64,000 nucleotides of DNA from the NCBI GenBank assembly GCA_963774265.1, contig CAVZDU010000003.1, forward strand, positions 288,001-352,000. Reading direction: 5' to 3'. A program made the translations under genes and the position numbers. This stretch comes from an uncultured Chloroflexia bacterium (lineage in GTDB: Bacteria > Chloroflexota > Anaerolineae > CG2-30-64-16). Below, in pieces: positions 22,234-25,879 of this stretch. The notes beneath the pieces are model-generated. The model had not been told where the DNA came from, made no database searches, and saw nothing but the letters and a program-made list of their open reading frames with translations. Every line of letters starts with the position of its first letter. Positions within the stretch are counted from its first letter, which is position 1.

Positions 22234-22313
22234 ATTGTATGATAAGAGGGGGTGATAGGCAAGCGGCGCAGAAGTCGAAGCAACTTGCCGCAAGCACCGT
22301 CCTGTCCTATAAT
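22234..22313. promoter_or_regulatory. Back-to-back divergent sigma70 promoters
   Basis: Minus strand TTGCCT-17-TACAAT (22262-22234); plus strand TTGCCG-17-TATAAT (22285-22313). Confidence 0.65.
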
Positions 22314-22368
22314 CTCCGAGGCTGCCGCATGTGTGCAGCCGGCCGTTGTTCTTTTCGATGGAGAAGTC

Positions 22369-23289
22369 ATGCACACGATCCTTCGCTCGGCCGCGGGCGT
22401 TGAGACCATCATCGGACCCGACCAGCCGTTCGTCATTATCGGCGAGCGGATCAACCCGACCGGCCGCAAGGCGCTGGCCGCGGAGATGCTGGTTGGCAAC
22501 TTCGAACGGGTCAAGGCCGACGCCCTTGCCCAGGTCCAGGCCGGCGCCACGGTGCTGGATGTGAACGCGGGATTGGGCGTGGCCAACGCACACGATCTCG
22601 AGCCAGTGGTGATGGCCAGGGCCATCGAGGCCGTACAGTCGGTGGTGGACATACCCCTGTGCATCGATTCTTCGGTGCCCGGTGCGTTAGTGGCTGGGCT
22701 GAAGGCAGCAGGCGGCCGGCCGCTGATTAATTCGGTCACCGGCGAGGAGGAGCGCATGGAAAAGGTGCTTCCGCTGGTCGCAGAGCACAGATGCGCAGTG
22801 ATCGCGATCTCGAACGACGAATCGGGCATAAGCATGGACCCGAAGGTGCGATTTCAGGTGGCTAGGCGCATCGTGGAGCGGGCGGAGCGCTACGGCATCC
22901 CGCGTGAGGACATCTTGATCGACCCGCTGGTCATGCCCGCAGGCGCGGTCCACGCGGCAGGACGTGCGGTGCTCGATATTCTGCGGTGGATCGGCGACGA
23001 ACTGGGATGTAACACCGTGTGCGGCGCGAGCAACGTGTCATTCGGCTTGCCCGATCGGGAGGCGATCAACGCAACGTTCCTGGCGATGCTGGCCGCGGGC
23101 GGCATGACCAGTGCGATCACGAACCCGCTCAAGCCCGAGCTGAAGAAAGCCGTGATGGCCGCAGATATGTTGCTGGGGAATGACCCTGACTGTCTGAGGT
23201 GGCTGAAATATCAGCGCCAGCTCGTCGGCGAAGTCACGAGCGAGCGCGAGGCGCGCCGCGCTGCAAGGCGGGCCGAACGCGACGGATAA
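22369..23289 (+). CDS. Methyltetrahydrofolate:corrinoid methyltransferase (MetH pterin-binding module)
   Basis: IIGERINPTGRK, LDVNAG, PLCIDSS, INSVTGEEE, GASNVSFGLP; GGAG RBS. Confidence 0.9.
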   Translation: MHTILRSAAGVETIIGPDQPFVIIGERINPTGRKALAAEMLVGNFERVKADALAQVQAGATVLDVNAGLGVANAHDLEPVVMARAIEAVQSVVDIPLCIDSSVPGALVAGLKAAGGRPLINSVTGEEERMEKVLPLVAEHRCAVIAISNDESGISMDPKVRFQVARRIVERAERYGIPREDILIDPLVMPAGAVHAAGRAVLDILRWIGDELGCNTVCGASNVSFGLPDREAINATFLAMLAAGGMTSAITNPLKPELKKAVMAADMLLGNDPDCLRWLKYQRQLVGEVTSEREARRAARRAERDG

Positions 23290-23355
23290 TCTTCAATCTT
23301 TGATTTTCAATCTGCAATTCATCAAGGGAGTTGCTGATTAGCCGTTGGCTCACCG

Positions 23356-23383
23356 TTGACGGATGAAAATGGGGGCGTAGAAT
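23356..23383 (+). promoter_or_regulatory. Sigma70 promoter inside the IS110 left end
   Basis: TTGACG-16 bp-TAGAAT. Confidence 0.65.
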
Positions 23384-23389
23384 GGTGGA

Positions 23390-23566
23390 GACGCCCTGGC
23401 ATGAAGTCGGATGAATTACCTGGTGCCACGAGTCCGCAAGGGAGTTTGGCTCGAGTGCCTGCAGGCACCGTAGACTGTGGCCCTCCAATTTGGGGGAGTA
23501 CGCGAAGGAGACTCTTCGCATATCAGGCACTCCGCTGGGGCGATCACGAGCAAGCGGAGGCGCACG
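23390..23566 (+). ncRNA. Candidate IS110 bridge RNA
   Basis: Downstream of the promoter, several hairpins. Contains CAAGGGAGT (target left), GGATGA (reverse complement of target right), CGAAGGAG (donor left) and ATCAGgcACTCC (reverse complement of donor junction, 10/12). Confidence 0.6.
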
Positions 23567-24808
23567 ATGCAAGTGGTCTATGAGCGGTGCTGCGGGATCG
23601 ATGTGCACAAGCGCACGGTGGTGGCGTGTGCGATCGTGCCTGGGCCGGATGGGCAATCGGTGAAGGAGACCCGCACGTTTGATACCTTGACCGAGAACCT
23701 GGAAGCACTGGCGGAATGGTTGCAGGGCCTTGGGGTCACGCACGTGGCGATGGAGAGCACCGGGGTGTACTGGAAGCCGGTGTACAACCTGCTCGACGGG
23801 CGGTTTGCCATTCTGGTGGTCAATGCAGAGCACATCAAGGCGTTAGCTGGCCGCAAGACGGATGTGCAAGATGCGGAGCGGATTGCGGACCTGCTGCGGC
23901 ACGGGCTGCTCAAAGGGAGCTTCATTCCTTCGGCTGAGCTACGTGCGTTGCGCGATCTGACTCGCTACCGCACCAAGCTGGGCGATGAGCGCGTCAGTGA
24001 GATCAATCGGGTGCAGAAGGTGCTGGAAGACGCCAACATCAAGCTGGCGAGCGTGGCGACCGATGTGATGGGTGTCAGCGGACGAGCGATGCTGGATCAG
24101 ATCGTGCAAGGCCAGGCCGATCCAGCCGTGTTGGCCGAGCTGGCCAAGGGTCGCCTGCGGGACAAGCTGGACCTGCTGCAGAAGGCGCTAAGTGGACGCG
24201 TGCAGGCGCATCATCGCTTCATGTTGGCGCAGCACCTGAGCCACATCGACTTCTTGGACGAGGCCATCGACCGGCTCGACCAGCAGATCGCGGAGCAGAT
24301 GCGCCCTTTTGCGCCGGCGCTGGCGGCCTGGGACTCGCTGCCGGGGATCAACCAGCGGATTGCGGAGATCGTCGTCGCTGAGATTGGGGCCGACCTGCAG
24401 CCGTTCGAGGATGCGGAGCATCTGGCTTCGTGGGCGGGCATGTGTCCCGGCAACAACGAAAGTGCCGGCAAACGCTACAGTGGCAAGACCCGCAAAGGCA
24501 GTCCCTGGCTGCGGCGAGCCTTGGTGGAAGCGGCGCACGGCGCTGCCCGCACCAAGCACAAGTACTTCCAGGCGCTCTATGGGCGCCTGGCGGCCCGGCG
24601 GGGCAAACAACGGGCGCTAATGGCCGTCGGGCACAGCTTGCTGGTCACCGGTTACTACTTGATCACCCGGCAAACCAAGTACGAGGACTTAGGCGGCAAC
24701 TACTTCGACGAGCGCGACTGTGAAGCTGTGAAGCGGCGGGCCGTCAAACGCCTGGAGAAGCTGGGCTATCAGGTCCAACTGGTGCCAGCCGCCGTCCCAA
24801 CCGGGTAA
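23567..24808 (+). CDS. IS110 family recombinase/transposase
   Basis: GIDVHK, MESTGVYWKP, GRKTDVQDA (DEDD RuvC); SWAGMCPGNNESAGK with catalytic Ser; GGAGG RBS. Confidence 0.95.
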   Translation: MQVVYERCCGIDVHKRTVVACAIVPGPDGQSVKETRTFDTLTENLEALAEWLQGLGVTHVAMESTGVYWKPVYNLLDGRFAILVVNAEHIKALAGRKTDVQDAERIADLLRHGLLKGSFIPSAELRALRDLTRYRTKLGDERVSEINRVQKVLEDANIKLASVATDVMGVSGRAMLDQIVQGQADPAVLAELAKGRLRDKLDLLQKALSGRVQAHHRFMLAQHLSHIDFLDEAIDRLDQQIAEQMRPFAPALAAWDSLPGINQRIAEIVVAEIGADLQPFEDAEHLASWAGMCPGNNESAGKRYSGKTRKGSPWLRRALVEAAHGAARTKHKYFQALYGRLAARRGKQRALMAVGHSLLVTGYYLITRQTKYEDLGGNYFDERDCEAVKRRAVKRLEKLGYQVQLVPAAVPTG

Positions 24809-24835
24809 TCGAGATCATTTTCGAAGGAGTCATCC

Positions 24836-25879
24836 ATGAATCCAGTTTTGCTGAAACTCGGCCCTTTTCAGGTGCACTGGTATGGCCTGTTGATCGTCCT
24901 CGGCGCAGTGTTAGCGGCCTGGCTGGCAACCAAAGAGGCGCAGCGCCGCGGCGAAGATCCGGAGCACGTGTGGAACTTGCTCACGTGGTGCTTGATTCTC
25001 GGCATCATCGGCGCGCGACTGTATCACGTTTTCTCCACGCCCACCGGTAACTTCGCCGGCTGGGCGTACTATCGCGAGAATCCGCTCGACATTATCAAGT
25101 TCTGGAACGGTGGTTTCCGCGGCCTGGGCATCTATGGCGCAGTCGCGGGCGGTGTCCTGGCGGTCATCATCTACGCGTGGCGCAACAAACTGGTTCTGCT
25201 GCGTTGGTTGGACATTCCCACCCCAGGGCTGCTGGTGGCGCAAGCGATAGGCCGGTTGGGCAATCGCATCAATCAGGAACTGTACGGTCCGCCGACGGAT
25301 CGCCCTTGGGCATTCCACATCGATCCGCGCTTTCCGTGCCAGGAGCCGGCCGGTTCGCCCAATGCATGCGGCCTATCCGACCGTCTGACGCCCGAAGCCG
25401 CCGAGTGGTACAGCGCCAACGGTTTCCACCCGACATTCTTCTACGAGATGCTATGGAATCTGGCCGGCTTCCTGGTCCTCTGGTTCGGCGGTCGCGCGTT
25501 GGTCAAGAAGCTGCGCGACGGCGACATCTTCTTCGCCTACATGATCTGGTACGGGATCGGTCGTTACTGGGTCGAGATGTTCCGGCCTGACGCATGGCGC
25601 ATGGGCGCGCTGGCCACCGCACAGTGGATTGCCCTCGGAATGATCGCAGCGGGCGTCCTTGCCATCATCATTAACCACATGCGCCCTCAGCGCGCAGTCC
25701 CGGAGCCCGTGGCGGTTGAACCTGCAGCGGTTGAACCTGCGGTGGTTGAACCCGTGGCAGATGAACCCGTGGTGGCTGAGCCAGCGGCGCTTGAATCCGT
25801 GCCGGATGAACCTGTAGCGGTTGAACCCGCGGCACATGAACCCGTGGCGGCTGAACCCGAGGACAGCGAAGCGGTATAG
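24836..25879 (+). CDS. lgt: Prolipoprotein diacylglyceryl transferase with an acidic Pro-rich repeat tail
   Basis: HWYGL, GARLYHV, AQAIGRLGN..NQELYG, HPTFFYE, GRYWVEMFR; 15-bp EPVAV repeats at ~25702-25860. Confidence 0.93.
   Translation: MNPVLLKLGPFQVHWYGLLIVLGAVLAAWLATKEAQRRGEDPEHVWNLLTWCLILGIIGARLYHVFSTPTGNFAGWAYYRENPLDIIKFWNGGFRGLGIYGAVAGGVLAVIIYAWRNKLVLLRWLDIPTPGLLVAQAIGRLGNRINQELYGPPTDRPWAFHIDPRFPCQEPAGSPNACGLSDRLTPEAAEWYSANGFHPTFFYEMLWNLAGFLVLWFGGRALVKKLRDGDIFFAYMIWYGIGRYWVEMFRPDAWRMGALATAQWIALGMIAAGVLAIIINHMRPQRAVPEPVAVEPAAVEPAVVEPVADEPVVAEPAALESVPDEPVAVEPAAHEPVAAEPEDSEAV

Follow-up and report, generated by a model that had tools for sequence, protein, structure and literature searches.

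The window analysed here is a stretch of 64,000 nt (G000:C3:288001-352000) in the 5.5-Mb, 10-contig genome of an uncultured Chloroflexia bacterium, whose closest named relatives are Anaerolineae and Anaerolineales metagenome-assembled genomes. An IS110-family insertion sequence in this window separates the Shine-Dalgarno (SD) sequence CAAGGGAG from the lgt start codon (ATG) and has the same orientation as that gene (Table 1). The lgt gene is the sole full-length copy in the genome; the second match is 31% identical over 174 residues. The element comprises a non-coding left end with two putative guide sequences, a bridge-type recombinase gene and a right end that finishes in GGAG.

Both junctions described in an initial annotation of this DNA are present, ATCAAGGGAGTTGCTGAT on the left (23321-23338) and TTTTCGAAGGAGTCATCCATG on the right (24818-24838, with the lgt ATG at 24836). 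The shared core GGAGT that it had read from them is not borne out: the string in common is GGAG, and the T at 24830 is most likely host DNA, since both other near-identical copies of the element have a G after the right-end GGAG. Across the family alignment, target and donor of most members have no more than their last two bases (AG) in common, and this core is identical in 41 of 45 guide pairs. As the T is not shared and the AG core is common to most members, we place the element at 23331-24829, a correction that leaves the reconstructed empty site unaffected. No terminal inverted repeat was found among 18 detected inverted pairs, none of which joins both termini. The flanks share just GGAG or AG with the element ends, and target-site duplication does not go beyond this short core.

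The same ends recur elsewhere in the genome. A DNA search returned five matches including the window copy, and tblastn four full-length transposase genes. The three near-identical copies start after ..AAGGGAG with TTGCTG (TTGTCG in the C5 copy) and terminate in TTTTCGAAGGAG, which is followed by TCATCC-ATG, GTTTC-ATG and GTCAGC-ATG. In all three, the right-end GAAGGAG stands 5-6 nt before an ATG; the genes behind them are lgt, a split epimerase gene and a 49-residue Cys-rich open reading frame (ORF) without Pfam match. The initial annotation had predicted that other copies would show these ends just upstream of start codons. This is the case in 3/3 copies of this genome, with the ATG 5-6 nt downstream, and in 7/8 copies of a sister element described below.

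Eight relatives examined for the lgt locus have the same gene order, an MtrH-like gene followed by lgt, and the element is absent from all eight. A GGAG-type SD precedes the lgt ATG by 5-6 nt in seven of them (L044 has no GGAG), and two, L040 and L042, read TCAAGGGAG-N5-ATG. Because the relatives carry the uninterrupted site, the reconstructed site represents a native SD with its spacer. The proposal that removing the element restores the native lgt ribosome-binding site (RBS) and start codon thus agrees with the relatives, and the empty allele that had been anticipated in related assemblies exists there. With ends recurring in three copies and an empty site that matches relatives, the arrangement at the junctions goes beyond chance.

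How the element may find such sites is suggested by its left end. The stretch CAAGGGAG at 23437-23444 is a same-strand copy of the left flank, and a second stretch, CGAAGGAG, is a same-strand copy of the right end. Relatives of the element were drawn from 41 related genomes (11 with a match) and a species-representative collection (79 loci). A MAFFT alignment of 31 left ends has a conserved scaffold with two variable slots at the guide positions, and the slot contents predict the element ends in family members with protein identities between 29% and 100%. As a control, the last seven bases of each guide were sought in the ends of the same element and, for contrast, in those of elements with a different guide; slots shorter than 7 nt are excluded from this control as well as from the tree, the right-end and the SD-context counts below, and those longer than 9 nt also from the right-end count. 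The target guide is found exactly in its own left-flank region in 24/38 elements versus 10/1402 mismatched pairings (0.7%), and the donor guide exactly after its own transposase gene in 29/41 elements versus 27/1596 mismatched pairings (1.7%), so guides and ends covary. For the two bases that follow the target guide, agreement with the first two of the left end amounts to 83% and 79% (24 elements), a signal that is independent of boundary finding and resembles the so-called handshake guide. We regard both stretches as putative left guides of a bridge RNA, whose expected places they occupy.

The insertions of elements with such guides lie in a distinctive context. Where the guide is of the SD type (ending in GGAG), 12 of 17 located right ends have an ATG 5-9 nt later that opens a frame of at least 45 residues; with other guides this holds for 0 of 40. 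A sister element in genome G024, with 85% protein identity and the guide TCAGGAG, is present in eight copies, whose left flanks end in CAGGAG, AAGGAG or AAAGGAG. In six of seven copies, an ATG opening 76-352 residues lies 6-9 nt after the right end; the seventh (L049) has a 5-codon frame only. The eighth (L098 = L035) has a decayed transposase gene and is absent from the SD-context tally, its right end not being found there; it continues with CTTCAC-ATG, so that seven of eight sister copies stand before an ATG. Genes behind insertions encode a PPK2, a zinc alcohol dehydrogenase, a D-Ala-D-Ala ligase-like protein, an AsnC-type domain protein and a CDP-alcohol phosphatidyltransferase, and four further ORFs have no Pfam match. 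An 88-nt contig of the public sequencing run X1 likewise has the same right end as the window element, followed by TTCCT-ATG.

The right end offers a candidate substitute for the SD that the insertion displaces. The 3' end of the host 16S rRNA (..CACCTCCTTTCT / ..GGATCACCTCCTTTCT) is complementary to AAGGAG; read from sequence, GAAGGAG would form six Watson-Crick pairs with it and the native AAGGGAG about the same number with one wobble. The native spacer between GGAG and ATG measures 5-9 nt in 727 of 1076 candidate starts of the genome, and the spacings at the insertions fall within this peak. That the right end sets a GGAG at native SD spacing, as originally noted, follows directly from the sequence, and replacement of the RBS by the right end is plausible. 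Among SD-type elements, 9 of 12 right ends finish in GGAG, compared with 2 of 33 others, and two further SD-type elements have the right end GAGAG. Likeness between donor and target is not obligatory, because 13 of the 33 non-SD elements share at most one of five positions beyond the core; 5 of the 33 share four or five.

In a quick maximum-likelihood tree of 44 transposases (calculated without the SD-type rows L056, L072 and L078, whose extracted ORFs contain a stop codon), the window element falls in a clade of five Anaerolineae elements with a support of 100. All five have SD-type guides that differ only 5' of GGAG; the sister guides read CAAGGGAG, TAAGGAG, TGAGGAG, TCAGGAG and TTAGGAG. Other SD-type elements are scattered over the tree, on which the SD label needs five changes, at least four of them forced by well-supported branches. 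Guides and right ends of the SD type thus go together in several lineages, although related elements do not count as independent.

Table 1. Features of the lgt locus and copies of the element in the genome. Single coordinates refer to the window; C2, C5 and C10 are other contigs of the genome.
Feature	Position	Strand	Remarks
MtrH-like pterin-binding gene	22252-23289		Upstream of the element and lgt
Native lgt SD CAAGGGAG, left half of target	23323-23330	+	Uninterrupted in relatives L040 and L042; matches guide at 23437-23444
Last two SD bases AG, probable crossover core	23329-23330	+	
IS110-family insertion sequence, ~1.5 kb	23331-24829	+	Extent of 99% identity with two other genomic copies
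Sigma-70-like promoter TTGACG-16-TAGAAT	23356-23383	+	10/12 matches; 1 site vs shuffle mean of 0.3; consensus match only
Short hairpin directly 5' of target guide	23421-23436	+	RNAalifold, 26 family members: 5 pairs, 3 with compensatory changes
Putative left target guide CAAGGGAG + TT	23437-23446	+	TT = first two bases of the element's left end
Long-range helix, 5' arm GAGTGCCTG	23453-23461	+	Pairs with 23524-23532
Putative left donor guide CGAAGGAG	23503-23510	+	Same-strand copy of the element's right end
Long-range helix, 3' arm CAGGCACTC	23524-23532	+	
Transposase / bridge-type recombinase, 413 residues	23567-24808	+	PF01548, 9.9e-33 (residues 9-156); PF02371, 4.4e-20 (residues 257-338)
Right end: family-conserved TTTTC, then donor left half CGAAGGAG ending in AG core	24818-24829	+	
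Native spacer TCATCC, SD to start codon, right half of target	24830-24835	+	Spacers of relatives 5-6 nt
lgt, prolipoprotein diacylglyceryl transferase, intact, 347 residues	24836-25879	+	PF01790, 2.4e-73, profile positions 1-239 of 240
Near-identical copies, 99%	C10:428298-429805 (C10a) and C5:453250-454755		
83% sister (C10b)	C10		Directly adjoins the C10a copy at contig end
Left-end fragment, 155 nt	C2		

The transposase has the domain order of the IS110 family, DEDD_Tnp_IS110 (PF01548) followed by Transposase_20 (PF02371), and matches the structures of IS621 (8wt6, 9e-17) and ISCro4 (9t56, 1.2e-13). The alignment with IS621 keeps the motifs GID (D12), ESTG (E63), KTDvqDA (D99, D102) and SLPGI (S257). 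These are the catalytic positions of IS621, comprising acidic residues of the RuvC-like domain and a serine of the Tnp domain. The longest ORF (window 23477-24808) has a GTG start codon at 23477, which would make it overlap with the donor-guide region. Homologues begin at the ATG at 23567, which has a GGAGG 7 nt upstream.

For the predicted RNA, RNAalifold on 26 sequences gave no structure besides a single 5-pair hairpin next to the target guide. A long-range helix has arms that vary widely among elements yet remain complementary, with best averages of 8.69 bp within a sequence versus 5.41 bp across sequences (26 sequences). It begins beside the target guide and encloses the donor guide, in what looks like a nested topology. 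A small hairpin before the donor guide is weak (own 4.46, cross 3.84). Three other candidates were rejected: pairing of the donor guide with the segment just downstream (own 4.81, cross 4.64), a local hairpin after the target guide (own 3.85, cross 3.99) and a TGGTGCC/GGCACC pairing (own 5.92, cross 5.60), in which the sequence is conserved and hence uninformative.

The internal promoter facing lgt that the initial annotation had mentioned is recovered as a sigma-70-like site with 10/12 matches, by consensus match only, and faces the RNA region, the transposase gene and lgt. From the transposase stop (24808) to lgt, consensus matching found no terminator-like site on the + strand.

Several further observations concern the ends of these elements and their surroundings. 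Near the start of the left end, at roughly +5 to +10, most relatives read CCATGC. In the window element this motif has decayed to TTGCTGATTAGCC (23331-23343); sister elements thereby have an ATG some 6 nt behind the host SD. We rejected this left-end ATG as the start of a conserved peptide, as the window element has no ATG there and the flanking CC..C is also conserved, a pattern that suggests a nucleic-acid motif. At the contig end in G000:C10:428298-431288 (L002, L004), two related elements stand head to tail: the left flank of the C10a copy is the right end of the 83% sister, ..CATTTTCAAGGGAG, so that the window-type copy abuts its sister's right end precisely, and that end equals the target guide of the window element. 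The fragment G000:C2:601493-601639 (L005) is a solo left end of a sister element with the left flank GGAAGGAG. It keeps the target guide TAAGGAG and the donor-guide slot, and unrelated DNA follows after the donor guide. In L010 (G022:C541, a 1.9-kb contig), the right end ..CATCCTAG runs directly into another left end, TTGCTCCACT.., a joint that may stem from a tandem pair, from a circle or from the collapse of a repeat during assembly. In L055 and L057, from an uncultured Chloroflexia genome, a hexamer tandem repeat separates the transposase gene from the RNA region, and a repeat of the pentamer type follows the right end. Just upstream of the lgt SD in the window lies an AT-rich tandem heptamer, (AATCTTC)n (23288-23320). 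It recurs at 30 loci of the genome within 7 mismatches, many of them intergenic (e.g. C1:1300846-1305417 and C3:372918-372934), and occurs dozens of times in same-genus genomes; several copies form inverted pairs.

Taken together, our data point to a bridge-type IS110 element whose guide programmes the targeting of SDs and whose right end plausibly replaces the RBS; we assign this reading a probability of about 0.72. The element would move by RNA-guided site-specific recombination. Its left end would encode a structured RNA that reads as the top strand of two DNA sites, one stretch (CAAGGGAG) corresponding to the left half of the target and the other (CGAAGGAG) to the right end of the element, each with the AG core as its last two bases. 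With a target guide that spells an SD, recombination would occur at SD sites, immediately 3' of GGAG and oriented with the gene. The donor half at the right end is SD-like and carries the same GGAG, and the downstream gene would keep an SD at unchanged spacing. Its transcription may come from upstream read-through, from the element's own promoter or from both. We infer that the RNA is produced and directs recombination, that an RBS function resides in the right end and that this function lets the copies persist. The observation behind the initial annotation is confirmed and its interpretation is supported, with a working RBS at the right end and an active search for SD sites as its presumptive parts. 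A guide of the bridge RNA type, which that annotation had not considered, would account for the targeting.

SD sites may be sought by the element, or insertions there may simply survive. The guide motifs themselves are not confined to gene starts: of 303 AAGGGAG sites in the genome, 69 have a start codon 3-10 nt on that opens at least 80 residues, and a start codon with a long ORF follows 15 of 109 CAAGGGAG sites and 131 of 693 TCAGGAG sites, or 14-23% of motif-matching sites overall. Nor did column agreement and own-versus-cross pairing reveal an RNA position that reads the spacer or the start codon. The guide alone would therefore be insufficient for the SD context, whose near-exclusiveness most likely results from the loss of gene-breaking insertions together with tolerance of those that keep an SD.

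The motif counts for AAGGGAG and CAAGGGAG belong with several other points that weigh against our interpretation. No column of the RNA follows the target's right half (highest agreement 0.57, n=21), and three candidate segments for a right-side guide pair with their own right-hand DNA no better than with that of others; the 3' part of the RNA is poorly alignable and could hide right-hand guides. An Rfam E-value scan of 23200-24900 gave no match, and the enclosure of the donor guide by a long-range helix departs from the two sequential stem-loops of IS621. Five SD-type sites have no gene start (the C10-adjoining sister, L046, L049, L056 and L061), although the right end of L056 mismatches its own guide and is probably misplaced. 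L061 is an SD-type element with a non-SD right end, and two non-SD elements have a right end in GGAG. Behind the C10a copy, the NAD-dependent epimerase gene (L002:433-1495, minus strand) is split into two overlapping frames of 164 and 213 residues, as either a pseudogene or an assembly error or indel. Most boundaries outside multi-copy elements were set with the help of the guides, which makes column identities of 100% partly circular; independent support for the guides comes from the own-versus-mismatched control, the ends of multi-copy elements and the conserved TTTTC and CCATGC motifs. Of the 24 public runs listed, none contains more than 0.33 of the sampled words, and all are stored as contigs. 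The four best contain no contigs that skip the element and no right-to-left end joints over 23000-25200. What they contain are relatives of the element rather than the present lgt locus, and they are uninformative on excision, circles and expression.

SD targeting may be real and the SD-like right end still a by-product of shared descent or of a preference of the recombination reaction for similar halves. The right end would then not have been selected to restore translation, and downstream genes would perhaps be expressed weakly or not at all. Such an origin is made conceivable by non-SD elements with near-identical halves beyond the core (G021 5/5, L062 5/5, L059 4/5), by the targets of IS117 and IS900, which resemble their circle junctions (Tobes and Pareja 2006, PMC1525189), by the two non-SD elements with GGAG right ends and by the split gene behind the C10a copy. 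We nevertheless consider it unlikely, given that 13 of 33 non-SD elements share at most one of five such positions, that GGAG right ends are concentrated in SD-type elements, that these elements belong to several lineages, with at least four label changes on the tree, and that lgt, the PPK2 and zinc alcohol dehydrogenase genes and other downstream ORFs are intact.

Alternatively, the proper target could be the right end of sister elements (..TTTTCAAGGGAG), with host SDs such as that of lgt hit as look-alike off-targets. The guide CAAGGGAG is identical to the donor half of C10b, L046 and G024-type elements, the C10a copy sits exactly at such an end, a contig of run X1 reads ..CTATTT before TCAAGGGAG at the left junction, and many family members have a TTTTC-like string left of the target half. 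Set against this, two of the three genomic copies are at host SDs, the relatives confirm the lgt site as a native SD, and the sister guide TCAGGAG matches no tabulated right end while its eight copies occupy different host sites. An off-target origin of the lgt insertion therefore seems very improbable to us.

If SD targeting and RBS replacement both hold, they suggest how a transposon can settle in the few most sensitive bases in front of a gene that nevertheless stays active, because the insertion supplies a second SD at unchanged spacing; with a right end that works as an RBS, this would be a natural scarless, expression-preserving insertion. More tentatively, and at somewhat less than even odds, the element may belong to an Anaerolineae lineage of bridge-RNA transposons with a safe-harbour strategy that combines an SD-spelling guide with an SD donor end. 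Insertions would then be translationally silent for the gene behind, even an important one, and would place it under read-through transcription from the element. The landing site would be rebuilt at the right end, allowing related copies to stack head to tail, and sisters with different guides would divide the pool of SD sites among them. Recognition may, in such a lineage, rely on the left half-site alone, which is simpler than the four-guide model.

Among the closest characterized systems is IS621 of Escherichia coli, the archetype of bridge-RNA-guided IS110 recombinases, together with ISCro4; the element shares both protein domains with them, and its protein matches their solved structures with the motifs aligned. 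As in IS621, a non-coding left end precedes the recombinase gene. In IS621, the left target and donor guides have the sequence of the top strand and finish in a dinucleotide core common to both (PMC11208160), and the same applies to the two putative left guides of the present element. The IS621 protein is shorter, with 328 residues compared with 413 here, and the match covers residues 10-152 and 225-353. Right-hand guides are part of the IS621 system, whereas the column and pairing searches found none here; should recognition of the left half be enough, the targeting rule would be shorter than that of IS621. The core is CT in IS621 (PMC11208160) and AG here, and the IS621 target, a repetitive extragenic palindromic (REP) element (PMC1525189), contrasts with the SD sequence used by our element.

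In its choice of site the element resembles IS900 and IS901 of the Mycobacterium avium group, which insert between the SD and the start codon (Plague 2010, PMC2942039, citing Doran 1997 and Inglis 2003). The target motif of IS900 is given as CATGNNNNNNTCTCCTT (Conde et al. 2021, PMC8141618). That motif is written in element orientation, so that the strand opposite to it carries the SD and the IS900 transposase gene runs antisense to the host gene, whereas the element described here is co-oriented with lgt. IS900 also carries a full-length antisense ORF, hed, that is said to use host signals. No such ORF is present here, the longest antisense ORFs inside the element being 199, 140 and 115 residues. 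The right end of our element is SD-like, unlike those of IS900 and IS901, and in the literature found there is no statement that IS900 restores the RBS of the displaced gene. Nor did that literature, with supplementary target-motif tables outside its scope, describe an SD-programmed bridge RNA guide or an RBS-restoring IS110 end. The likeness between donor and target is already known, as it is noted for IS900 and IS117 in PMC1525189.

SD targeting is already known for IS900 and IS901, and the element represents a variation on such behaviour rather than a system of a new kind. It links the older observation of insertion between SD and start codon to the bridge RNA mechanism of 2024, with the SD preference directly readable from an 8-nt guide. 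For annotation, the family pattern offers a simple means of locating the exact boundaries and targets of such elements: a right end TTTTC-N6-AG, which recurs across the family, and two guide copies that precede the start of the transposase gene by some 60-80 and 125-145 nt.

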